This document shows positions 35,689-49,018 of a stretch of DNA of 64,000 bases, piece after piece (the first letter of the stretch is position 1; each line of letters opens with the position of its first letter). A program made the position numbers and the translations under genes. Under the pieces are notes generated by a model. The model worked only from the letters and a program-made list of their open reading frames with translations. It was not told the origin of the DNA and searched no databases. This stretch comes from Elusimicrobiota bacterium. Lineage in GTDB: Bacteria > Elusimicrobiota > UBA8919. The stretch covers positions 30,731 through 94,730 of the forward strand of contig JAFGLF010000018.1 of the NCBI GenBank assembly GCA_016928195.1, read 5' to 3'.

Positions 35689-37638
35689 TTAGTCCCAGAA
35701 AAGATCAGCAATCTTATTATTCTCAATAACTCCTATATTAATAATAAGCCAGCCGGTAGGTGCAACAGCCGGTGCCTCCGAAAACTCATGCGGTACATAC
35801 ATTGTGGAGTAATGAATACCGCCGGTTTCCGAACTATGTCTTAAAACCTCCTTGACTACTTTTTCTCCCTTAGATTTATCACCTATACGTAAATATGCAA
35901 GCGATACCCCAAGTGCTCCTTCTGTCCACATCATATTAACATCGTCCCATGATTTTTTTGGATTGCCGGGAAAATAATACTTACCTACTTCATATGTTTC
36001 GTATATGGGTTTTCCCAGATAAGGTTTATACCCAATACCTTTTTCTATTCTGCAGGAATATTTTGCTGCTGTCCTTGCCGCTCTAACAGCTTTTTTCTCG
36101 TGGTTTCTGGAAAGCAGAAAGAGGGAACCCCACGAAGCACAATCAAGCGCCATTACTTCATCAGACTGGGCAGCACTCTGGCCACGGTTGAACTGTCCGG
36201 CTTTTTCATTCCAGCATTGCGCAACAATCCGTTTACCCATTAACTCAGCTGCATCACGATATTTTTGTTTACTTGACAGTTTTCCCAAATCCTTCAGGAA
36301 GAAATACATATCAATGTTATGTTCTATGCTGCACCACGTTACTTCATCCGGAACAAACTGTTCCTCAACCTTGTTGATTTCATGATTCAATTTAAGTACA
36401 TATGTACCTTTGCCCCCGGTAACCAAACCGTATCTTGCATCCTGATTGTCTGTTATTCTGCGTTTCAGCATATTATCGGCAATTAATTCGGCATAACTTA
36501 AATAATTTTGTAGTTCTGTGTTTTTAGAAATTATTTCTGGATCATCAAGCAGGCGTGCCCTCAGATAAAAAACAATAGCCTGTCCTGCCCACGCAGATGC
36601 ACCGGAACGAATAATAGCTCCCCAACTGTCTTCTTTGTTCGGCCAGGTATTATGGGTATTGAATGTGAAAAACAACTCGCCGTCCGTACCGCCCATCCTC
36701 ATTATAGCATCTATAATTTTACTTGCTTGTTCAAACTGGTGTTCTATGGTAAAGGCTATTACTGCAACACCATTATCATATAACGAGGATTTACTGAAAA
36801 TATATTTATAAGCATCTGCTGTTTCCGGAAGCTCGTAACTTAATATAAGATTACGGCGGTCATTTGCCGGAGACTGAACGACATCATTCGGTACCATCTG
36901 CCGGTTAAGCCACTCAATGGACTTTTTTCTTACATTATAGTACGGACTTGAAGGGTTAGGCAATTCCGATACTGATGCTGCGACAGCAGACGGGGCTTGC
37001 CCGGCAGGTTCTATTTCTTCAGCAGAATAATTTGATAACTTATCGATGAAATCCAGTGCATACTCCCTTGCCTGATCTTCAGAGATATCTGTCGCACGGA
37101 CTGCGATACGGAACATAATACAGCCATCGTTCATGATTCGCTTTGAATCACGCCACATAAACCAGTATAAAAGATAATGTTTCCAGTCGCCTTTATATGC
37201 CGTAAAATATTTTGCCTCGAATTTCTTTTCACCGGAAACAATTTGTGTATATCCGCGTTTTTTTACAAGCCAGCTATCGTTTATATAACATACTTCGGGA
37301 GTATGAAAACGGCTTTCTACTATTCCATGAACAGCAATAAAATATATTTTAGCATTTTCGTCAACAGAATGCACGTATGCCCTGAAAAAAACAATATTTT
37401 CATCATCATGTTCCAGTTCATACCCTTCCCAATCTCCTAACTCATAAGGAATATTTCTAATCTTCTCTTTATCCAGCAGATTGGAAGAAACATTAATTTT
37501 ACCCTCGTGCGAGGTTGCAAAATAATACCCCGTGTCAGTAATAAAAGTATGCATCTGTTCTGTCTGTGATAAAGCAGATGAAGTATAAAAGGATATGGCT
37601 AAAATCACAATCAACGGCATACGTAATCTGTGTTTCAC
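35689..37638 (-). CDS. EpsI-family (exosortase-associated) domain fused to a ~430-aa helical-repeat domain
   Basis: Signal peptide. EpsI-like block (IPYELGDWEGYE ... HTPEVCYINDSW ... YWFMW). Then a long C-terminal region with alpha/alpha-toroid-like spacing of W/G/N/D motifs. The GTG start overlaps the exosortase stop (GTGA). Confidence 0.65.
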   Translation of the reverse strand: MKHRLRMPLIVILAISFYTSSALSQTEQMHTFITDTGYYFATSHEGKINVSSNLLDKEKIRNIPYELGDWEGYELEHDDENIVFFRAYVHSVDENAKIYFIAVHGIVESRFHTPEVCYINDSWLVKKRGYTQIVSGEKKFEAKYFTAYKGDWKHYLLYWFMWRDSKRIMNDGCIMFRIAVRATDISEDQAREYALDFIDKLSNYSAEEIEPAGQAPSAVAASVSELPNPSSPYYNVRKKSIEWLNRQMVPNDVVQSPANDRRNLILSYELPETADAYKYIFSKSSLYDNGVAVIAFTIEHQFEQASKIIDAIMRMGGTDGELFFTFNTHNTWPNKEDSWGAIIRSGASAWAGQAIVFYLRARLLDDPEIISKNTELQNYLSYAELIADNMLKRRITDNQDARYGLVTGGKGTYVLKLNHEINKVEEQFVPDEVTWCSIEHNIDMYFFLKDLGKLSSKQKYRDAAELMGKRIVAQCWNEKAGQFNRGQSAAQSDEVMALDCASWGSLFLLSRNHEKKAVRAARTAAKYSCRIEKGIGYKPYLGKPIYETYEVGKYYFPGNPKKSWDDVNMMWTEGALGVSLAYLRIGDKSKGEKVVKEVLRHSSETGGIHYSTMYVPHEFSEAPAVAPTGWLIINIGVIENNKIADLFWD

Positions 37639-38477
37639 GGAATTATAAGCCTCCTTATTTCAGTTCTATCTTTGTATATACGATGAAATATGTGCCATAC
37701 CATAAACATTAGTGTCAATGAAACAATATAGAAAAAGTATCCGGCAAAATTATGCCAGAAACGTATTGCCAAATCCATCCCGCCGGCTTTAGCAATGATA
37801 AAAATACAGACAATTCTCAAAACATTCGTAAAAAAACCCACGGGCAGTGCTAATAAAAGCATGCTGTATGTTATCATAGGTTTGTTTTTAATTATAATTG
37901 CCCAAAGTATTATAATGGTAACAAGTGCAAGAATAGAATTAGCACCGCTGCAATTGATACCTATACTGAATACTACATCCGGCGGAATATATATTTCGAT
38001 ACCATTGACGATAACCGACGGATAAAACAGCTTCAACAGAGAAACCGCAGTTTTTGCTGAAACAAAACTGAAATATCCGGATATCTCATACAGAAAAGGC
38101 AGAGGGAATACGAGTATTATCAATAAAAACGGCAAATTTAAATAATATGTATATTCCTGTGCCAGAAAAGTTTTATTAATCGCAAGACAGCATATCGGAT
38201 ATGCCGTTGCTATTAGATACGGGAACCTGTAATACAATCCTAAAAAGATAAATATACAGGCTGCAACCCAGAATAAAATAACTGATTTAAACTTTAATAC
38301 GATCTTTTTTATTCGGCACCCGTTTATTACAATGAGTATCAGACAGAAAAAAACAATTATAAAACTATGTGTATAAAATGTGTTATGTATCCAGGACTTT
38401 ACCAGCCAATTAAAAATATCACTGAATACAAACCAGTACAATAGGGAAAAAATACCCGTAATAAGAAGATAATGCAT
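37635..38477 (-). CDS. exosortase/archaeosortase-family transpeptidase (minimal 280-aa form)
   Basis: About 8 TM helices. Candidate catalytic Cys in INCSGANS, Arg in NVLRIV and His in FWHNFAG. This matches the Cys/Arg/His layout of exosortases. An EpsI-domain gene is adjacent. Confidence 0.7.
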   Translation of the reverse strand: MHYLLITGIFSLLYWFVFSDIFNWLVKSWIHNTFYTHSFIIVFFCLILIVINGCRIKKIVLKFKSVILFWVAACIFIFLGLYYRFPYLIATAYPICCLAINKTFLAQEYTYYLNLPFLLIILVFPLPFLYEISGYFSFVSAKTAVSLLKLFYPSVIVNGIEIYIPPDVVFSIGINCSGANSILALVTIIILWAIIIKNKPMITYSMLLLALPVGFFTNVLRIVCIFIIAKAGGMDLAIRFWHNFAGYFFYIVSLTLMFMVWHIFHRIYKDRTEIRRLIIP

Positions 38478-38496
38478 ATCGCTTATTGTTTACGGC

Positions 38497-38910
38497 TTAT
38501 TGCTGACCGTCCGAAGCGTCTTTATCGCAGCAGCTTTTCTTTTTTGTAAGGAAATAACCTGCTACTCCGATAGCGCCAAGTCCGACTAAAACTGCAGCAG
38601 CCATAGGAATACCCGGAACTGAAGGGCCTCTATCTCTGTCTCTTCCTCTACCTCCGCCCCTTCCCCGGCCACTGCCTCTTCCCCGGTCACTGCCTCTTCC
38701 CCGGCCACTGCCTCTTCCCCGGTCTTCGTCTCTTTCTCTCGGAGCAGCATAAACATTTTGAACATTATTTATTTTGGTAAATTGGTTCAAAAGACTTATA
38801 TTTCCTAAACATTCCTGATGTCCCGACGAAGAATCCTGTCTCACATCCGGGATGGAAAACACGGCACATATGAACACTGCAATTATAATACTAACCAGTG
38901 TCTTTCTCAT
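38497..38910 (-). CDS. secreted Arg-Gly-repeat protein with C-terminal sorting-signal-like tail
   Basis: Signal peptide. RGRGSGRGRGSDRGRGSGRGRGGGRGRDRDRG. Then PSVPGIP, a 19-aa hydrophobic helix, KKK and a 12-aa tail. Start set to ATG 38910 (poly-G SD); the track starts at GTG 38919. Confidence 0.6.
   Translation of the reverse strand: MRKTLVSIIIAVFICAVFSIPDVRQDSSSGHQECLGNISLLNQFTKINNVQNVYAAPRERDEDRGRGSGRGRGSDRGRGSGRGRGGGRGRDRDRGPSVPGIPMAAAVLVGLGAIGVAGYFLTKKKSCCDKDASDGQQ
38663..38724. repeat. 18-bp tandem repeat inside the RG-repeat gene
   Basis: CCCCGG[CT]CACTGCCTCTT x3 plus a partial fourth copy. Encodes the RGRGS[GD] units. Confidence 0.9.
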
Positions 38911-39076
38911 AAAAATCACCCCCCCATAACTACGATTTAAACTAATAAAAACGCAGATTCAAACGGATTTACATCTGTCTGAATCCGTGACTACATCTGT
39001 TTTCATCTGTGTTTCCCATCTGTCTGCATCTGCGCCTTCATCTGTTTGCATCTGCACTTTCATCTGTCCGAATCGT
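38911..39076. repeat. phased CATCTG/CAGATG word array
   Basis: CATCTG at 38972, 38994, 39004, 39017, 39027, 39039, 39049 and 39061. Spacings are 22, 10, 13, 10, 12, 10 and 12 nt. The left part (GCAGATTCAAACGGATT ... GTCTGAATCCGTGACT) is shared with 51513-51603. Confidence 0.9.
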
Positions 39077-39946
39077 CTATTCCTCAAATTCGAATACTAC
39101 TGTTGTAGGATATATCCACTGAAGCAGTGAATCAAAAGAAAGTATAAGCCCATGTTCTTCTATACCAAATAATTTATGGTCAATCGCAAATGAGTCTACA
39201 TCCCAGTAAACCCCGGAAGAACCATCCCAGTCCTCTTTCCCGCTTATGCTCTGACCGTTTATAAGATTTGTACTTGCATTTCCTTTAAGTCCGTGACCTC
39301 CTATAATAGTCAGCCGGACAGGAACAAACGAAGTCCCTTTTTCCAAAATCTTTATATCATATATTTCTCCGGGTCTTAACATAAGAAATTCGCTTTTTAT
39401 TTGTATCCGCTTTTTATTTGTATCCTCCGGGTTCCTGTAAACTACTATAACGGCATATCCTCCCACTGAACAAAATTCAGCACCTTTTTTCTCAAAAACA
39501 TCACTTCGCAGATCTTTTATTATATATTTTCCCTTTCCATTATATACAGAAGTTATATCGGCAAAACAGGAATATAATATACCGGAGGAAGCAGATTTAT
39601 AAACCTTATCGGCCTCAATCTTTTTTGGCCCATTTCCGGGGCTTTGTATTGTTATATTTTTAAAATCATCCGATTTTTTCTTAACCTCTCCAGACCACAC
39701 AAGTATAACCTTATCAATATTATCAAAACTTCCAATATGAAATTTACTCTGGCTTAAGACCTGTCCGGAGCCGGATATCATGCTTTTACCGTCAACCCAT
39801 ACACTCAATCCCAAATCCTCTTTCTCATAATATGTGTCCATCTGCAGCCCGCAGTAAAGTGCCTGAAAAAAACCAAGAATAATAATACATAAGATAATAT
39901 TTCTAAAACTGATATTCTGTATAAAATTTATAATAGACATCTTCAT
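39077..39946 (-). CDS. hypothetical membrane-anchored/secreted beta-rich protein
   Basis: N-terminal hydrophobic helix followed by about 250 aa of beta-rich sequence. ATG 39946 has an AGGGGGG SD. Overlaps the end of the porin gene by 44 nt. Confidence 0.5.
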   Translation of the reverse strand: MKMSIINFIQNISFRNIILCIIILGFFQALYCGLQMDTYYEKEDLGLSVWVDGKSMISGSGQVLSQSKFHIGSFDNIDKVILVWSGEVKKKSDDFKNITIQSPGNGPKKIEADKVYKSASSGILYSCFADITSVYNGKGKYIIKDLRSDVFEKKGAEFCSVGGYAVIVVYRNPEDTNKKRIQIKSEFLMLRPGEIYDIKILEKGTSFVPVRLTIIGGHGLKGNASTNLINGQSISGKEDWDGSSGVYWDVDSFAIDHKLFGIEEHGLILSFDSLLQWIYPTTVVFEFEE

Positions 39947-42077
39947 CCCTGTCCCCCCTGTGTTCAAAATCACAAGTTATATCTGCACATAGTTTTATCA
40001 TATCAGTAATATTATAATAAGTAAAAACATTTAAACTATGGGTGCTGGTATCGTAAAGATTATCACTTTCCAGCGAACAAGTAACAGAATAATTAACTTT
40101 TGCAAACTGATTTTTATAATTTGTTTTAATGGTATGTATCGCTTCCGAATCATTTGTTAAATGACGGAAATAATAGCCGAGCTCACATTGTTTTAAAAAA
40201 GGTAACACATATTTAACACCGGCATTATAATCCTTACGGCTGTAAGTACTGTAGTAATTTTTATAGAACACTGACAACAGAAAACTTAAGTTTTCTGTTG
40301 TATCATGCCCTACAGATAATCCGGCATTTTTTAAATATCCTATTTCCAGGTTATTCTCCATGAGCATAGGATACACGGGTTCACTGTCATAATTTACACT
40401 AAACACCCACTTATTTAAATCATATTGAGTAAGTATAAATCCGAAAAAACCCGTTTCATCGTCACGAAGCATATAAACCTCACTGTCGTTATCACGATAT
40501 AAACCCCTAATCAACCTTCCGGTAAGTTTAATTCTTTTACCAAACTGCCTGCTTAGTAACACAGAATATTCATCACCGATTAAACCGTAGTTTCTATCGG
40601 CATCTTCCAGTTCTTTCTCAGTAATATGTTTATAGCGGAATCCGGCGGAAAATATCGATGAAAATGATATATCAACCGCCTGAGAATATTCATGACGTAC
40701 TGTTTTCTCGGCAAACTCCGATAATTCCGAATCATAATTTTTAAGTCCAGCATAATCAAATCTTGTTTCAAATCTGGGTTTTTTCAAATTTTCCAGTTTC
40801 TCCAGTTCTTCTGATGCTTCTTTATTAAGAGGATTTATTTCAAGAACTTTTTTAAACTGCCGGCGTGATTCGGACCAGTTCCCGTCATAAAAATATGTCC
40901 GTCCGAGCCCTATATATGCTTCCTGGTTATACGGATCAATACGGATTGCCTCCTTATAAAGCTTTATTGATTCTGCAATACGCAGTTTCCAGCTATAAAC
41001 CCTTCCGAGAGTTATAAGATTTTCAATATCGTTATCCTGTACAGTTAATGCTTTCTGTAGTGTTGTAATGGCTTCATCTATCCTGTCTGTATAACTATAC
41101 AGAAGTCCCAAACGTGCATCTATCTGCGGTTTATCGCCTCCGAGATCCCTGGCTTTTTCATACCATTTGATCGCTTGTTTATATTTATCCTGCATTTCAT
41201 ATAAAAGTGCTATTTCCATAACTGCAGAAACATTGTTTTTATCCCGTTCAAGAATCTTTTTCTGTATAGCTATTCCTTCTTCATAACGTTCAGCCCATCT
41301 ATATATACGCGCCAGTGTTTTCGCAGCTTCCAAATCCCCGGGATCTATTTTCAAAGATCTTTCAAAATATGAAACTGCCTCGTTATAATCCCCTCTCCAG
41401 CTCAGTACTTTTCCAAGTCCGTTCAAAACAGCGGTATTACTTGGATACTCCCGGAGCATTTCTTTATACCGGGCAACAGCACCATCATAGTCGCCCTGGG
41501 CTGCAGTCATATCAACCAGAGAAATACGGGCTTTTTTATTACCAGGGTCAATCTCCAAAATCTTTGAATACATAGCCCGGGCTGAAGAATAATCCATATC
41601 CCACATAAAAATACGCGCTTTGATTTCATATGCATCTATATATTTAGGATTATTTTTTATTACCTCATCGCATAATACCAGCGATTCTGCACTCTTATCC
41701 TGCCAGCTCAAAACACGTGCTTTTGCAAGTTTGGCATCATCATATTGGGGTGTAACGGAAAGAACCTTATCGAAATACCTGATAGATTCATCATACTTCT
41801 CAGTCCAGGAAAATAAAATACCTATCTGAAAAAGAATATCGGAATTCTCCGGCTGTAACAATTCGGCTTTCCTAAACCATATTATTGATTCATCAAACAT
41901 TTTTTTCTCTTTATAGTGTTTTGCAATCTGAATTATATATTCAACAGCTTCAGGATTTTTTTTATGCATTTTCATATAGTAATCTAAATTCAGTTCGATT
42001 TTCGAAGTATCTTGAGCAGGAGAGAGAGAGTATATGAAAATAAAAATCAAAACAACTATAATAATGTTTCTTTTCAT
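39903..42077 (-). CDS. TPR-repeat outer-membrane polysaccharide export porin (PgaA/NfrA-like architecture)
   Basis: Signal peptide, about 430 aa of tandem TPRs, then about 290 aa of alternating beta-strand pattern. The protein ends in YTEYQF, an aromatic OMP C-terminus. Confidence 0.7.
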   Translation of the reverse strand: MKRNIIIVVLIFIFIYSLSPAQDTSKIELNLDYYMKMHKKNPEAVEYIIQIAKHYKEKKMFDESIIWFRKAELLQPENSDILFQIGILFSWTEKYDESIRYFDKVLSVTPQYDDAKLAKARVLSWQDKSAESLVLCDEVIKNNPKYIDAYEIKARIFMWDMDYSSARAMYSKILEIDPGNKKARISLVDMTAAQGDYDGAVARYKEMLREYPSNTAVLNGLGKVLSWRGDYNEAVSYFERSLKIDPGDLEAAKTLARIYRWAERYEEGIAIQKKILERDKNNVSAVMEIALLYEMQDKYKQAIKWYEKARDLGGDKPQIDARLGLLYSYTDRIDEAITTLQKALTVQDNDIENLITLGRVYSWKLRIAESIKLYKEAIRIDPYNQEAYIGLGRTYFYDGNWSESRRQFKKVLEINPLNKEASEELEKLENLKKPRFETRFDYAGLKNYDSELSEFAEKTVRHEYSQAVDISFSSIFSAGFRYKHITEKELEDADRNYGLIGDEYSVLLSRQFGKRIKLTGRLIRGLYRDNDSEVYMLRDDETGFFGFILTQYDLNKWVFSVNYDSEPVYPMLMENNLEIGYLKNAGLSVGHDTTENLSFLLSVFYKNYYSTYSRKDYNAGVKYVLPFLKQCELGYYFRHLTNDSEAIHTIKTNYKNQFAKVNYSVTCSLESDNLYDTSTHSLNVFTYYNITDMIKLCADITCDFEHRGDRDEDVYYKFYTEYQF

Positions 42078-42090
42078 AAGTAAAATCTAA

Positions 42091-43494
42091 TTATCCGATT
42101 CCTGTTCTTTCCATTTTACCCCAGGATTTGCGCCCTAGCATCCAATCGTAGAGACCCTTTGCCCTTACAACCGCCATATACTGGCGGTAGCCGAAATTTT
42201 CAAGTATTGCTGCAGACATAAGCTTCAATAAATCCCTCACGCGTTTATATCTGTGATATGTAACCTCTTCCATCAACAATGCAAGCAGTGACAGTACTAA
42301 TCCGAAAATAACTGCAAGCAGAAAAAATGCTATAAAAGACGTCAGGCTTACTGCTTTCATACAGAACCCTAAAATAAATGTCACATAACCGAATAATTCA
42401 ATTATAGGACTTATAAACTCAATAAAAAAGAAATAAGGCATGGCTATTAGCCCGACATTTTTATACCTTGGGTTACACAGCATACCTATATGCATAAAAA
42501 GACTTTCTGCCAGACCGCGCTGCCACCTGTTACGCTGACGGCTGAGTGTTTTTATGTTTTCAGGAACTTCCGTCCAGCAAACAGTATCCGGCAAGAAATA
42601 AATACCGCAAGGTTTTTTATCTCTTCTAAGGTAGTGATGCAGCCGTACCACCAGTTCCATATCCTCTCCCACAATTCCTTTCTTATAACCGCCCACATCA
42701 ATAACAGATTGTTTCTTAAATAAACCGAATGCTCCGGAAATGACCAGATTACAATCCAGCATACTAAGACCCATACGGCCGGACAAAAAAGCACGGAAAT
42801 ACTCAACCACCTGAAAATTAACAAGCATTTTATTGGAAGTTTTTACATCAGGAACTTCCTTCCCTCTATATTTACATCCATTTGCAACACGGATTAAACC
42901 TCCGGTAGCAACAATGTTGGCGTAGGATTCCATAAAAGGATGCACCACTCTTAACAGAGAACTTTGTTCTAAAACCGAATCTGCATCAATACAGCAGAAA
43001 AGGGGATATGTACTTACATTTATACCTGCATTCAACGAATCCGCTTTACCTCCGTTCTCTTTATCAACAACTATAAGATTTTTAACGGTCTGGGAACGGT
43101 AAATAGCACGGATTTTCTCTGAGGCTAACTGCGGATTATATTTTCTGGAAGTTTTTACAAGTTTAAATTCTTCTTTTAACACATCCATTGTTCTGTCTTT
43201 TGAACCGTCGTTTATTACTATAACCTCAAACTGACCATATTGCAGTTCCAGCAGCGATTTAACACTTGCAACAATACTTTTCTCCTCGTTATACCCCGGT
43301 GCCATAACTGAAACGGGTGGAGTGATTCTTGCTTTTAAAATCTCATTGGTAGTGGCAAACTTTGTGCGTATTTGGTGCGAAATCAGACCTTTAAAAGAAA
43401 GAAGAAAAATAAAAATATAGAATATGCTGACTATAAAAAAGTAAGCAAGAATTAAAAGACTGATAACCTGCATAAAATTATGCATACTCGTCAA
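42091..43494 (-). CDS. processive family-2 glycosyltransferase (PgaC/IcaA/cellulose-synthase-like)
   Basis: N-terminal TM helix. PGYNEE, INDGSKDRT, DADS, GEDMEL and QRNRWQRG motifs. C-terminal TM helices. Confidence 0.88.
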   Translation of the reverse strand: MTSMHNFMQVISLLILAYFFIVSIFYIFIFLLSFKGLISHQIRTKFATTNEILKARITPPVSVMAPGYNEEKSIVASVKSLLELQYGQFEVIVINDGSKDRTMDVLKEEFKLVKTSRKYNPQLASEKIRAIYRSQTVKNLIVVDKENGGKADSLNAGINVSTYPLFCCIDADSVLEQSSLLRVVHPFMESYANIVATGGLIRVANGCKYRGKEVPDVKTSNKMLVNFQVVEYFRAFLSGRMGLSMLDCNLVISGAFGLFKKQSVIDVGGYKKGIVGEDMELVVRLHHYLRRDKKPCGIYFLPDTVCWTEVPENIKTLSRQRNRWQRGLAESLFMHIGMLCNPRYKNVGLIAMPYFFFIEFISPIIELFGYVTFILGFCMKAVSLTSFIAFFLLAVIFGLVLSLLALLMEEVTYHRYKRVRDLLKLMSAAILENFGYRQYMAVVRAKGLYDWMLGRKSWGKMERTGIG

Positions 43495-44554
43495 GCCATT
43501 GTGCAGCCATATCCCTTACAGACTCGGACCGGCTTTCCTTTTCTAATAAAAGAAGGGCTGATTTACCTTTTTCGCCCAATTTTGTCAGAGCTTCACCCGC
43601 ATTTCTGCGTACCCACCATTTACGGTCATTCATTGCCTCATTCAGCGGACCAACGGCCTCCGGTAATCCTATGAGTCCGAGGCCACGTGCAGACTGCGCA
43701 CGAACTTCCCATAAAGAATCTTTCAGACCGTCTATAAGACATTGCATACCGGAAGAATCAGCAATCGTTCCGAGTGCTTTATATGCCGCTACGCGAACTT
43801 CTTTGTTTTCATCCTGAACAGTTTTATTTATTATTTCCGGAACAGATTGATGGGCCTGTATCTCGCCAAGTAAATGAAGTGAAAGAATACGTACGGCAGA
43901 ATCTGTATGTTCCAAGGCTTTCGTCAAAACAGGTATTGCTTTTTCTCCCAACTCGAAAACCGTAGAAGAAAGGCGCATACCGGCAAGACGGGATGTATTT
44001 ACAAGAGCTTCCATACTCGGCACAATAATATCCGGATCACCTATTCTACCCAGCGACCATGCGGCCAGAAGTCTAACCTCAAGAACTTTGTCTTTCAGAA
44101 CTCTAAGAAGAAACGGCTTTGACCGCTGAGAACGAAGCTGTCCGAGACACCGGGCAGCTTCGGCACGTGTCCACCAGAAAAATGCTTTCAACCGTTTTAA
44201 GTCCAGGTCAACAAAACCCAGTTTTTCATATGCTTCCAAAATTATTTCTATATTTCTTCTTGTTTCGCCGAAACTTCTGAAAACAATAAGTTTTTGTACA
44301 ATAGGCCTGCTGAAAAAGCTTAACGGCCGGAAAGCAGAAAGTTTCGAAATATCCGCAGTTTTAAGATAGTCCTCAAACACGGGCCTCATCCAGCCCAACA
44401 TTTTATTACTATATCTGTCCCATAACATATTACCCAACTTAACCATTACAAGCACAAAAGTCAAAAAACTAACCAACGACAGCAAAACTATGGCTGCATT
44501 GGCGATATATATATGCAGGGTTCTTACAAAATTACTGAATAACTCAATGTTCAT
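43478..44554 (-). CDS. membrane-anchored HEAT-repeat protein
   Basis: One N-terminal TM helix. At least 5 PBS-lyase-type HEAT repeats (EVRLLAAWSLGRIGD, AVRILSLHLLGEI, EVRVAAYKALGTI, EVRAQSARGLGLIG, WVRRNAGEALTKLG). Overlaps the GT2 start by 17 nt. Confidence 0.75.
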   Translation of the reverse strand: MNIELFSNFVRTLHIYIANAAIVLLSLVSFLTFVLVMVKLGNMLWDRYSNKMLGWMRPVFEDYLKTADISKLSAFRPLSFFSRPIVQKLIVFRSFGETRRNIEIILEAYEKLGFVDLDLKRLKAFFWWTRAEAARCLGQLRSQRSKPFLLRVLKDKVLEVRLLAAWSLGRIGDPDIIVPSMEALVNTSRLAGMRLSSTVFELGEKAIPVLTKALEHTDSAVRILSLHLLGEIQAHQSVPEIINKTVQDENKEVRVAAYKALGTIADSSGMQCLIDGLKDSLWEVRAQSARGLGLIGLPEAVGPLNEAMNDRKWWVRRNAGEALTKLGEKGKSALLLLEKESRSESVRDMAAQWLDEYA

Positions 44555-44588
44555 TTCAGTCCTTTTCTATACATACCACATCTATTTT

Positions 44589-44616
44589 ATTATATCAATT
44601 ATGAACCTTTTTTCAA
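44589..44616 (-). promoter_or_regulatory. candidate sigma70-type promoter for the HEAT-GT2-porin operon
   Basis: On the minus strand: TTGAAA (44616-44611), a 16-nt spacer, then TATAAT (44594-44589). This is about 35 nt upstream of the ATG at 44554. Lies in the only clean AT-rich spacer upstream of the locus. Confidence 0.35.
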
Positions 44617-44624
44617 GGTAAAAT

Positions 44625-45434
44625 CTATCGGAGTACTCGAGAGGTATGGTTATCTTTGATATTCCTATCAATATAACTATTTAAATGGTTTCTGACTTTT
44701 TTTACTCCAGAGGTATCAGGGAGAGTGTTTATAATTTTATCAATATAATTATGTTCCTGTATATAATGAAATGATGCCGGAAAATTAATATCAAATATCC
44801 AGCTTAACTGGAACAGTTTCATATCATTATATGTTTTTATATCGGCTCTGCACGTACAGCGGCAGTTCATGATATCGTCTATAATCGCTGACGAACAGTC
44901 CGGTTCATCGGGCAAATCAAATTCCAGAGCCGTATTAGGATGCAACTGGCGTTTTTCGTAGTAATCTGCCACAATAAACCATATATCTATCTTGTCTGCA
45001 TCACGCAGTAATTTAGTATAAAGTAAAAAATCCGGCAGTTCGTTCTCAGGCAGTTTATAAGCATTATGGTAACGTATCGATTTTAAAATAACTGCCCGCT
45101 CTTCTTCCTCCAATCTTTCCAGAACGTTTGTTTCTTTGACTACTTCTACGGATAATTCTGCATGGTTTATGGAACAGCGGTCATTTAATGTTTTATATCT
45201 CCTCAACTGCTCAAAACGGCCTATATCATGAAACAGTGCTATTATTTCCGCTGTTTGCAATTTATATTCAACTAAACCTAAATCTTTTCCGAGTTCGACA
45301 ATACTTCTGCAGACCCTATGAATATGTTCTTCTTTCAATCTAAGATTCAGCTTAACATCGTCATTTCCGGTATAATAAGGTTTTACGTAATTACGGAACC
45401 AAGAATGGAAAAAATCTAAATCTTCCTTTTTCAT
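44625..45434 (-). CDS. HD-domain phosphohydrolase
   Basis: HRV...LFHDIGR...HAELS...DADK metal-binding pattern. 269 aa. Confidence 0.75.
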   Translation of the reverse strand: MKKEDLDFFHSWFRNYVKPYYTGNDDVKLNLRLKEEHIHRVCRSIVELGKDLGLVEYKLQTAEIIALFHDIGRFEQLRRYKTLNDRCSINHAELSVEVVKETNVLERLEEEERAVILKSIRYHNAYKLPENELPDFLLYTKLLRDADKIDIWFIVADYYEKRQLHPNTALEFDLPDEPDCSSAIIDDIMNCRCTCRADIKTYNDMKLFQLSWIFDINFPASFHYIQEHNYIDKIINTLPDTSGVKKVRNHLNSYIDRNIKDNHTSRVLR

Positions 45435-47623: not shown

Positions 47624-49018
47624 CTACAGGTTCTCCTCTATAATTTCTTTCAATTCGGAAGGTGACGGTAGTTTATAAATATCCCTTATAAAAATTCCTC
47701 GGCGAGTATGCTTCCTCCATGAAAGATAAGCAATTTTTCCCTTTGATGATACGCGCGGAAGTGTTGATGAGAAATATTTACCACCGACTAACACATTTTC
47801 TTTCTTAGTTTTAATATTAACAATATATACCCCTTTATTTTCATACAAATCCCTGATTTCCTTATCTTTATCGCGGTATTTCCTGCGCAATGAACCGAGA
47901 AAAACAATAAAATTTCCATCTTTTGTAAAATCGGCGAACTTATTATAATATTTATCAGGGACTATTTCCACAGGGTTTCTCTTATCTATATCAACAATAT
48001 AGATACCGCAAAAATCCAACGCATCAATCCTTCCGTCTCCATTGGTATCCCGACGACGGGACAGATAAACAACTTTTTTGTAATCAGGCGAAAATTCGGG
48101 AAAAGAATTATCAAATTTATCTTTAGTAAGCTGGATTACAGATTTGTTTCTAAGATCAGTTATATATACTGCGGACGAATCCCTAAAATCAATCTTACCG
48201 TCGCCATATGTATCATCCCTCCACGAGGAATATAATACATATCTGCCGTCTAAAGATATTTTCGCAGATGTATGCTCATAAAAATCATGAACCAATTCCG
48301 TTACTGCTTTTGTTTTTATATCAACCGAATAAATACCCGCATGCCCCCCGACTTCACGCCAGGCACAAAATACAACAGATTTGCCGTCAGGAGAAAAAAC
48401 AGGTTTTTTATTATAAGTTTTATCACTTACAAGTATTTCCTCTATGCCGGATTCCAAATCAAATACATAAATACCGGGCGCATCCCTGTTGTTAATTATT
48501 CCGTCTCCGTTTGTGTCACGGCGGCGCGAAAGATAAATAGCATATCTGCCATCCGGCGAAAAAGAGCATTCAGAATTAATATATTTATCGTCCATGATTT
48601 GTTTTTCATTTTTACCGTCAGCATCTATTATATAAACACCGCCGTTATCAAGATGGTTTATCCTGCCGTCTCCATTTGTATCGCGTCTTGCAGATATAAA
48701 AATTATTTTTTGACCGTCAAAAGAAAAGTTAAGGTATGTATTATAAAACTGGTCGGAAACTATTTTTTTAAAATTTGTAATTTCAGTAATTCCCGAAACA
48801 ATATCATCTGAAGGATAAAGTTCGGAACATTTTAACAGAGTTTCTTTTGTTTTTACAATGTCATTCTTTTTAAAATATGCTTTCGCAAGCCAGAAATGTG
48901 CATAAAAATCTTTAGGATTTTTAGAAATCAACTCAGAAAAGAAAGTTATCGCCTCATCAAAGCGGTCGGAATTTAAAATATCTACTCCTTTCTCTAGTTT
49001 TGATTTAAAAAATAACAT
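47624..49018 (-). CDS. TPR + TolB-like beta-propeller protein with DxDxDG loops
   Basis: N-terminal TPR. Repeated PD40-like blades (FSPDG...). Each blade is followed by RRRDTNGDGxIxxxD Ca-binding-like loops, in at least 4 copies. Confidence 0.65.
   Translation of the reverse strand: MLFFKSKLEKGVDILNSDRFDEAITFFSELISKNPKDFYAHFWLAKAYFKKNDIVKTKETLLKCSELYPSDDIVSGITEITNFKKIVSDQFYNTYLNFSFDGQKIIFISARRDTNGDGRINHLDNGGVYIIDADGKNEKQIMDDKYINSECSFSPDGRYAIYLSRRRDTNGDGIINNRDAPGIYVFDLESGIEEILVSDKTYNKKPVFSPDGKSVVFCAWREVGGHAGIYSVDIKTKAVTELVHDFYEHTSAKISLDGRYVLYSSWRDDTYGDGKIDFRDSSAVYITDLRNKSVIQLTKDKFDNSFPEFSPDYKKVVYLSRRRDTNGDGRIDALDFCGIYIVDIDKRNPVEIVPDKYYNKFADFTKDGNFIVFLGSLRRKYRDKDKEIRDLYENKGVYIVNIKTKKENVLVGGKYFSSTLPRVSSKGKIAYLSWRKHTRRGIFIRDIYKLPSPSELKEIIEENL

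Follow-up and report, generated by a model that had tools for sequence, protein, structure and literature searches.

A 64-kb stretch of an Elusimicrobiota contig (hereafter the window) carries seven consecutive genes that, in our judgment, probably constitute a single functional system in which a synthase-dependent polymer is coupled to a dedicated exosortase reaction. The genes encode, in this order, a HEAT-repeat membrane protein, a family 2 glycosyltransferase (GT2), a secreted TPR protein, a DUF3344-like protein, a very small protein with a C-terminal sorting signal (hereafter the mini-substrate), a stand-alone exosortase, and an EpsI domain fused to a glycoside hydrolase (GH)-like barrel. 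We favor a single system because the gene order is conserved among independent loci, EpsI is fused to the barrel, several relatives unite exosortase, EpsI, and barrel in one polypeptide (triple fusions), and both the sorting tail and the catalytic residues of the exosortase are conserved.

All seven open reading frames (ORFs) were found on the minus strand in the ORF listing (Table 1). They are closely packed, as an earlier sequence-only reading of this DNA had described: the HEAT and GT2 genes overlap by 17 nt and the TPR and DUF3344-like genes by 44 nt; gaps of 13, 157, and 19 nt separate the GT2 from the TPR gene, the DUF3344-like from the substrate gene, and the substrate from the exosortase gene; and at the last junction, a 4-nt overlap, the EpsI gene overlaps the stop codon of the exosortase gene. 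In relatives, the order TPR protein/DUF3344-like protein/mini-substrate/exosortase/EpsI-barrel fusion recurs in 21 independent loci (L001, L002, L005, L006, L009 to L011, L013, L015, L016, L019, L021 to L028, and L032) and is kept down to 37 to 44% identity, which bears out the grouping that had been proposed from the window alone. The contigs of two close exosortase homologues (L001 and L002, the latter from a Thermodesulfovibrionia metagenome-assembled genome) share the gene order. At L010, where the fusion protein is 44% identical, the order is HEAT, GT2, an extra gene, the TPR protein, proteins of 321 and 95 amino acids, exosortase, and EpsI fusion.

The system is rare yet phylogenetically spread. 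A scan of 185,579 species genomes returned, under the patterns used, five loci in five species, mostly Nitrospirota, and a metagenome scan returned 80 further loci. The fusion protein has 79 relatives in a set of 5.8 billion proteins, some of them on contigs of 1.6 to 4.2 Mb, and the source names of the carriers include Nitrospirota, Nitrospinota, and Elusimicrobiota. L010 and L009 belong to circular metagenome-assembled genomes of 3.09 and 4.24 Mb, respectively, and the nearest relatives of the window are an unclassified metagenome-assembled genome and several from Thermodesulfovibrionia. In a hidden Markov model (HMM) census that covered all collected loci, the exosortase of each fusion locus was preceded by a DUF3344-like gene and a gene for a long TPR protein, upstream DNA permitting. 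The HEAT and GT2 genes adjoin this core in 9 of about 14 informative loci: they are adjacent in the window, L010, L015, L019, L021, L023, and L024, and lie next door in convergent orientation in L001 and L014.

Since every long ORF of the window lies on the minus strand, co-directionality carries no information, and this is the one point in favor of regarding the exopolysaccharide synthase and the exosortase as unrelated genes that became neighbors by chance. We consider such an accident hardly credible, because 21 independent loci from distant lineages keep the order and the domain fused to EpsI is otherwise a component of HEAT-GT2-TPR loci; in addition, genes of the locus overlap, and the genes on either side of it are not shared between loci.

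The exosortase unit and its mini-substrate

The exosortase exceeded the cut-offs of both PF09721 (107.3 versus 25.7 bits) and the signature model TIGR04178 (47.8 versus 23 bits). It has eight hydrophobic segments, and its Cys176 (INCSG), Arg221 (NVLRI), and His242 (FWHN) were aligned and conserved across the clade. The sequence-only reading had not recognized any described Xrt or Art subtype; in agreement, none of the subtype models of NCBIfam release 20 (XrtA to XrtX, cyanoexosortases, and archaeosortases) reached its cut-off, the best scores being 83.9 versus 208 for XrtA, 69 versus 425 for XrtW, and 66 versus 105.6 for TIGR02602. The exosortases of the L010 clade and the triple fusions likewise stayed below every cut-off, and the exosortase models of XrtG and XrtP gave no match to the window protein. 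Placement under any named exosortase subtype or sorting domain was thus rejected for all three. In 12 related loci (L009, L010, L014 to L017, L019, L021, L025, L028, L029, and L032), Ser replaces the catalytic Cys (EPSSG versus INCSG), whereas Arg and His are kept. These proteins form a sister clade whose substrates have PP[ST]V[SA]ELP tails and, as far as the sequences indicate, they either use Ser as the nucleophile or are non-catalytic. We know of no precedent for a Ser-type exosortase.

The mini-substrate probably starts at the ATG at position 38910, which lies behind a GGGGGG Shine-Dalgarno sequence. It consists of an N-terminal signal or transmembrane segment, a motif ending in VYA, an Arg-Gly-rich low-complexity stretch (residues 59 to 97, net charge +7), the sorting signal, and a 12-residue tail. 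Its C-terminal region has the tripartite layout of PEP-CTERM proteins, namely a motif, a transmembrane helix, and a basic cluster, and an N-terminal hydrophobic segment is present as well. The tail had been described as non-PEP, and it indeed lacks Glu (P-G-I-P) and does not match the PEP_CTERM model TIGR02595 even at an E value of up to 10. The description can now be refined. Recognition motifs across the groups form a graded series, with GPS[VL]P[GA][IL]PM in the window clade, PP[ST]V[SA]E[LFV]P in clade B (Glu kept, SELP), APSAPELP in clade C (Glu kept, PELP), and TPEPAT in L022, and the homologous L022 tail passes TIGR02595 (17.4 versus 16). Because this series reaches a tail recognized as PEP-CTERM, the window tail appears to be a diverged PEP-CTERM signal that lost its Glu.

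A homologous small gene adjoins the exosortase gene in all 21 loci with enough DNA to be informative. It mostly lies directly upstream, the substrate genes of L016 (1517-1840) and L021 (4553-4882) being located between the exosortase and EpsI-barrel genes. Neither the 64-kb window nor some 369 kb of related loci with an exosortase contained a second tail of this type, giving one per locus, and related loci lacking an exosortase had none. The single substrate predicted earlier was therefore observed as a local pairing, established per locus rather than genome-wide, whereas its polycationic nature applies to part of the family. All cargos are short peptides of low complexity, but their chemistry differs among clades: they are cationic and Arg/Lys-rich (net +7 to +19) only in the window clade and L016, and elsewhere they are neutral, His/Cys-containing, zwitterionic, acidic, or Gln/Gly-rich. 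Any charge-based role would thus be lineage specific, and polycationic charge was rejected as the general point of the system. L016 bridges the clades in that it combines a cationic KEPK/KKPK cargo, a Glu-containing PPSVSELP motif, and a Ser-type exosortase.

Two further features of the mini-substrate were observed. Just before the charged repeats, and 30 to 35 residues past the N-terminal hydrophobic segment, there is a conserved motif of the form S.LSA..VYA (window 38746-38790), which was also seen in the small proteins of L001, L002, L005, L006, L011, L013, and L016; the equivalent in clade B, VSVAEA followed by HH, resembles a signal peptidase site. The mature peptide may therefore be only 20 to 45 residues long after processing at both ends. 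Moreover, residues 129 to 140 (38500-38535) form an extension, SCCDKDASDGQQ, of Cys/acidic character beyond the Lys cluster, although sorting signals, including the tails of relatives, normally stop at the basic cluster. Two adjacent Cys residues in this extension, on the cytoplasmic side, could be sites of acylation or metal binding.

Such an extension, unusual for a sorting signal, is one of three features that would fit a different role for the small protein, that of a bitopic subunit or regulator of the synthase complex, PgaD-like in role, with the exosortase homologue as a scaffold or chaperone; the others are that the protein is tiny, of low complexity, and without a folded domain, and that 12 related exosortases lack Cys. 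We nevertheless consider this highly improbable, given that Cys, Arg, and His are intact in the window clade, that the motif-helix-basic layout is kept while the remainder of the protein varies freely, and that an HMM identifies the homologue in L022 as a genuine PEP-CTERM protein; in the Cys-less enzymes, Ser could still be the nucleophile.

The remaining member of this unit is the 289-residue protein, previously described as an unknown secreted protein. In its AlphaFold2 (AF2) model (pLDDT 84.5), an N-terminal helix is followed by two beta-sandwiches, which points to an all-beta protein that is membrane-anchored or secreted. It matched no Pfam family at an E value of up to 0.1, PF11824 included, and no NCBIfam model, and a profile search of 1.84 billion representatives retrieved only 48 at an E value of up to 1e-10. 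The profile of this family reaches a protein carrying Pfam DUF3344 (PF11824), and the two were aligned by hhalign with a probability of 97.5% (E = 6e-12), indicating that the 289-residue protein is a remote DUF3344 relative. The Foldseek matches of the model were weak and of low TM score; a jelly-roll or carbohydrate-binding module (CBM)-like function was consequently dropped, and the DUF3344 link comes from the profiles. In the census, the DUF3344-like gene was confined to loci with an exosortase. DUF3344 has been described as an uncharacterized surface-protein domain (PMC9210967), and a literature search on the function of DUF3344 or DUF3485 returned nothing relevant.

The synthase apparatus and the barrel fused to EpsI

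GT2 synthases with a QxxRW motif polymerize and translocate their glycan, and TPR/barrel proteins export glycans. We predict that the window GT2 is a processive membrane synthase because it matches several family 2 models, is 24% identical to Escherichia coli PgaC over 368 amino acids (E = 3e-29) with DAD (DxD), GED, and QRNRW aligned, the last opposite PgaC QRLRW, has the hyaluronan synthase of a Chlorella virus as its best solved relative in the Protein Data Bank (PDB), and contains one N-terminal and three C-terminal transmembrane segments. Its best NCBIfam match was PgaC_IcaA with 145 bits versus a cut-off of 422, and it is accordingly not classified as a PgaC equivalog. The HEAT protein has a single N-terminal hydrophobic segment, and the basic residues that follow it suggest that the repeats are cytoplasmic. 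A HEAT gene lies directly upstream of, or overlaps, the gene of this GT2 clade in the window and about 25 other loci, whether or not an exosortase is present, and Pfam and NCBIfam scans revealed no PgaB- or PgaD-like match in any of the seven proteins. These data agree with the earlier proposal that a HEAT partner takes the place of PgaD/PgaB-type partners.

The TPR protein had been read as a TPR/beta-barrel porin. The TPR part is clear, with a signal peptide followed by repeats at residues ~30 to 430, whereas the barrel was deduced from composition and periodicity. The C-terminal domain has no hydrophobic helix, contains 17% Tyr plus Phe, and ends in ...YTEYQF, with the Y-x-F pattern at its terminus. 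The amphipathicity of the single sequence is weak, but the family-averaged hydrophobicity shows period-2 segments compatible with about 16 to 18 strands. The domain is thus probably an outer membrane beta-barrel, and the term porin reflects its architecture. The PGA_TPR_OMP model scored 69 versus a cut-off of 367 and covered the TPR region only. A Pfam scan of 12 such C-terminal domains matched no family, a comparison of the domain profile with PDB chain sequences revealed no homology, and hhalign gave a probability of 0.3% against the E. coli PgaA barrel and negative results against two TPR proteins of related loci, one of which has a weak YaiO-barrel match.

The fusion of EpsI to a large extra domain, noted in the sequence-only reading, is conserved: all 43 full-length homologues of the fusion protein match the EpsI family PF11984 (E value of up to 1e-3; best 1.4e-16). 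On the EpsI model TIGR02914, with a cut-off of 42.8, the window and L010 proteins scored 12.2 and 40.4, respectively. The call is hence marginal for the window protein alone but holds for the family. An N-terminal signal precedes the domains. The AF2 model of the fusion (pLDDT 90.4, pTM 0.89) shows a beta-rich N-terminal domain, a disordered linker, and an (alpha/alpha)6 barrel, for which Foldseek retrieved GH94 phosphorylases, GH15, GH63, GH116, and the hydrolase MmpH with a probability of 1.0. Asp, Glu, and Trp residues of the barrel are invariant across 51 sequences, the invariant acidic residues including Asp288, Glu439, Asp443, Asp499, and Glu573. At the level of fold, the extra domain is therefore modeled as a GH-like barrel and a likely periplasmic glycan-modifying component; a Pfam match to Muramidase (E = 0.011) was rejected in favor of this fold.

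The exosortase gene is located directly upstream in all EpsI-barrel fusion loci with upstream DNA, and five proteins of 806 to 969 amino acids (P0065, P0067, P0068, P0072, and P0075) contain exosortase, EpsI, and barrel in a single polypeptide. Three of these five triple fusions have Asp or Glu aligned with the catalytic His (FWD, LWD, and VWE), which may be an alignment artifact.

In about 50 loci, the barrel is a free-standing secreted protein of 440 to 490 amino acids encoded beside HEAT, GT2, and TPR genes, and these loci contain neither an exosortase, nor a DUF3344-like gene, nor a small substrate. In a quick neighbor-joining distance tree, the fused barrels clustered as a nearly monophyletic subgroup nested among the free-standing barrels. 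Because of these free-standing loci and the nested position of the fused subgroup, the barrel appears native to the HEAT-GT2-TPR-barrel family. It would by origin belong to the synthase module and act as the hinge between two modules, an exosortase unit having apparently been joined to an exopolysaccharide family by fusing EpsI to the barrel.

The free-standing family, which is much larger and apparently undescribed, is found among loci L030 to L090 (e.g., L040, L044 to L046, L048, L052, L057 to L059, L065, L073, L078, L081, and L082). Its members encode a HEAT membrane protein, a PgaC-like GT2, a TPR protein, and a secreted (alpha/alpha)6 GH-like protein that belongs to no Pfam family; one TPR protein has a weak YaiO-barrel match. 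An extra secreted protein of 620 to 870 amino acids with a weak CBM30 match is encoded either between the GT2 and TPR genes or near the barrel gene in L009 (4086-6008), L010 (4048-5982), L019, L023, L024, L044, L052, L073, and L081, and has no counterpart in the window.

Features and setting of the locus

Table 1. Features of the seven-gene locus, with positions in the 64-kb window
Feature	Position	Strand	Size, residues, or sequence	Basis or remark
Sigma-70-like promoter candidate	44616-44589	-	TTGAAA-16 nt-TG-TATAAT	70-nt gap upstream of HEAT gene
HEAT-repeat membrane protein	43478-44554	-	358 aa	HEAT_2 (PF13646), 127.8 bits, 2e-37
Predicted processive GT2 (PgaC/hyaluronan synthase-like)	42091-43494	-	467 aa	PF00535, PF13641, PF13632
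Secreted TPR protein with C-terminal domain	39903-42077	-	724 aa	Many TPR families, 1e-45
C-terminal domain of TPR protein, probable outer membrane beta-barrel	~40781-39906	-	~290 aa	Composition, periodicity
DUF3344-like protein	39077-39946	-	289 aa (as called in public collection)	Profile searches
CAGATG array, eight motifs	38972-39066	Not assigned		In 157-nt spacer upstream of substrate gene
Arg-Gly-repeat mini-substrate	38497-38919	-	140 aa as called, 137-140 aa by start	Tail layout
C-terminal sorting signal of mini-substrate	38536-38628	-	GPSVPGIP 98-105, transmembrane helix 106-124 (19 aa), KKK 126-128	
Exosortase, stand-alone	37635-38477	-	280 aa	PF09721, 107.3 bits
EpsI fused to GH-like barrel	35689-37638	-	649 aa	PF11984, 25.4 bits; AF2
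EpsI domain	37554-37033	-	Residues ~29-202	
(alpha/alpha)6 GH-like barrel	36939-35692	-	Residues 234-649	Behind disordered linker

The promoter candidate proposed previously was recovered as the top site of the region, with 11 of 12 consensus matches and an extended -10 TG. This is a consensus match only, and the total of promoter-like sites in the region was not above that of shuffled sequence. No convincing terminator was found downstream of position 35689. GC skew was negative in all 2-kb bins of the window, the GC content was ~30 to 40%, and a tRNA scan and an Rfam scan of the 64 kb were both empty. Upstream of the locus are genes for HD-domain, thioredoxin-like, and Mg-chelatase-like proteins that are unrelated to the system, and downstream are genes for a DUF6901 protein, a deacetylase-family protein, and an MscS-like protein; none of these flanking genes is conserved in related loci. 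Also upstream, positions 47624-49018 encode a 464-residue protein with TPR and PD40 beta-propeller repeats and a weak dockerin-type match, whose adjacency to related systems is not conserved. In three loci that are distant from one another, a gene for a stand-alone receiver-domain protein (response regulator) is located just upstream of the system (L001, 5813-6199; L009, 3519-3917; L010, 680-1048). At this position, the window encodes an HD-domain protein (44625-45434).

Within the CAGATG array, the spacing alternates between 10 and 12 nt, resulting in a period of 22 nt with 4.4 copies. The hexamer is over-represented throughout the window (55 copies versus 18 ± 4 expected), and related loci have no spacer at the position of the array. 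The motifs could serve as binding sites for a regulator that permits the substrate to be expressed separately, or they could be a slippage-prone repeat.

Proposed reaction and relation to known systems

We propose an envelope-spanning system of two modules joined at the gene fusion. The first would be a synthase-dependent exopolysaccharide apparatus composed of the HEAT partner, the GT2, the GH-like barrel, and the TPR protein: the GT2 would polymerize and translocate a glycan, the periplasmic barrel would bind or trim the chain, and the TPR protein with its probable outer membrane barrel would export the polymer. The second would be an exosortase unit consisting of the DUF3344-like periplasmic protein, the exosortase, EpsI, and one mini-substrate, and the EpsI-barrel fusion would put the exosortase active site beside the nascent polymer. 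After Sec-dependent export, the substrate would stay in the inner membrane, retained through the C-terminal helix and the Lys cluster, until the exosortase cleaves it at GPSVPGIP, freeing an Arg-Gly-rich peptide of about 40 to 45 residues. The most economical fate of this peptide would be its transfer to the barrel-held polysaccharide, and a peptide-tagged matrix polymer, cationic in this case, would leave through the TPR porin. As a specific step, the transfer of the peptide to the glycan is a tentative suggestion.

Several points weigh against this proposal. Cleavage, the acceptor, and the identity of the polymer are all inferred. HEAT and GT2 genes are not adjacent to the core in about 5 of the 14 informative loci (L002/L007, L006, L009, L011, and L022), and a synthase from another site may therefore serve the five-gene core. 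Given the replacement of Cys by Ser in 12 loci, some members may not be transpeptidases. Further points are the composition of the cargo, which is not conserved across loci, the score of the window EpsI just under the PF11984 cut-off (25.4 versus 26.1), and the C-terminal domain of the TPR protein, for which sequence and profile comparisons detected no homology to known exporters.

The main rival keeps the same organization, but in it the exosortase would be a maturation or sorting protease only and the peptide would be freed or, in an archaeosortase-like manner, moved to a lipid or envelope anchor, its association with the polymer or the surface being non-covalent. In the window clade, the peptide could then serve as a polycationic counter-ion or cross-linker for an anionic matrix. 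In its favor, the tails and catalytic residues are conserved, the window-clade cargo is strongly cationic (net +7 to +19), several loci have the five-gene core but no GT2 gene next to it, and, to our knowledge, no acceptor has been shown chemically for any exosortase; however, the EpsI-barrel fusion in every member, the triple fusions, and the non-cationic cargos of other clades would be left unexplained, and we regard a protease-only function as rather unlikely. A bolder version of the proposed coupling sees exosortase, EpsI, and barrel as a peptide-to-polysaccharide ligase, in which the barrel presents the nascent glycan to the acyl-enzyme formed on the mini-substrate; this, too, we put forward as a speculative possibility that is doubtful at present.

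One of the closest described systems is that of PEP-CTERM proteins, XrtA (EpsH), and EpsI. According to a prediction of Haft et al. (2006, PMC1569441), exosortases process PEP-CTERM proteins in coordination with the production of exopolysaccharide; they accompany exopolysaccharide loci, their residues are consistent with a transpeptidase, they have been proposed to remove PEP-CTERM anchors, and a genome has a median of eight PEP-CTERM substrates (PMC1569441). Common features include an exosortase with eight transmembrane segments and Cys, Arg, and His, an EpsI encoded immediately downstream, a tail with a Pro motif, a transmembrane segment, and a basic end, the setting among exopolysaccharide genes, and a TPR protein in the locus. 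The window system differs by its low XrtA score (84 versus 208), a GPSVPGIP tail without the Glu of PEP, one tiny adjacent low-complexity substrate instead of many dispersed proteins, an EpsI that bears a GH-like barrel, and a synthase-dependent locus in which no Wzx/Wzy-type genes and no PrsK or PrsR were seen.

The apparatus resembles PgaABCD, which makes poly-beta-1,6-N-acetylglucosamine in E. coli, in its inner membrane processive GT2 with DxD, GED, and QxxRW motifs, an accessory inner membrane partner, a periplasmic glycan-processing protein, and the architecture of TPR plus probable outer membrane exporter. In contrast to PgaABCD, there is no PgaC equivalog (145 versus 422) and a HEAT protein stands in for PgaD, an (alpha/alpha)6 barrel forms the glycan-processing part in place of a CE4 deacetylase or a GH153 domain, the C-terminal domain of the TPR protein has no PgaA homology, and an exosortase module is present. 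By its fused barrel, the system also recalls BcsZ, the C-terminal domain of PgaB, PelA, and AlgL, which are periplasmic glycan-cleaving or -binding components encoded with a synthase and an exporter. The barrel, which we take to be of the same (alpha/alpha)6 fold class as BcsZ, differs from these proteins in that it matches no sequence family, has GH94, GH15, GH63, GH116, and MmpH as nearest folds, and is fused to EpsI.

The pairing of an exosortase with a synthase is not unprecedented in principle, given the glycosyltransferase models that NCBIfam associates with XrtG and XrtP, where an exosortase family protein accompanies a PgaC/IcaA-like membrane GT2. The window GT2 matches these models partially and far below their cut-offs (94.4 versus 364 for the XrtG-associated TIGR03111 and 43.9 versus 520 for the XrtP-associated NF053846), the systems being set apart by model scores only. 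In a similar way, the five triple fusions recall XrtD, XrtW, and XrtT, in which exosortase and EpsI are fused; those proteins end with EpsI, whereas here a GH-like barrel of 415 amino acids follows, and scores on their models are far below the cut-offs. Full-text literature searches for an exosortase tied to a synthase-dependent system, an EpsI-glycosidase fusion, or HEAT-GT2 synthases found no description. Taken together, these comparisons indicate that the system is of the PEP-CTERM/exosortase/EpsI type, grafted onto a Pga-like synthase apparatus, and corresponds neither to a named Xrt subtype nor to Pga.

In typical exosortase systems, which are hard to dissect, dispersed substrates number in the dozens and the loci are large and of the Wzx/Wzy type. 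The window system is minimal and self-contained, comprising a single synthase, exporter, exosortase, and peptide-sized substrate together with an EpsI-barrel fusion, and its layout suggests that the sorting reaction has the polysaccharide as its partner. The question of the exosortase acceptor can thus be tested in a seven-gene heterologous construct, for which a peptide of about 45 residues is well suited to mass spectrometry. If the ligase hypothesis is true, a genetically encoded low-complexity peptide would be covalently grafted to an exopolysaccharide before export; this peptide is rich in Arg and Gly in the window and in Lys, acidic residues, or His and Cys in other clades. The product would be a matrix polymer of peptide and glycan that is programmed ribosomally, an acceptor would for the first time be defined for an exosortase, and the sister clade would run the same chemistry with a Ser nucleophile. 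Our analysis also reveals a wider, uncharacterized family of HEAT-GT2-TPR-barrel exopolysaccharide loci, and the position of EpsI next to a glycan-handling domain hints at a role of EpsI in coupling the exosortase to the polymer.

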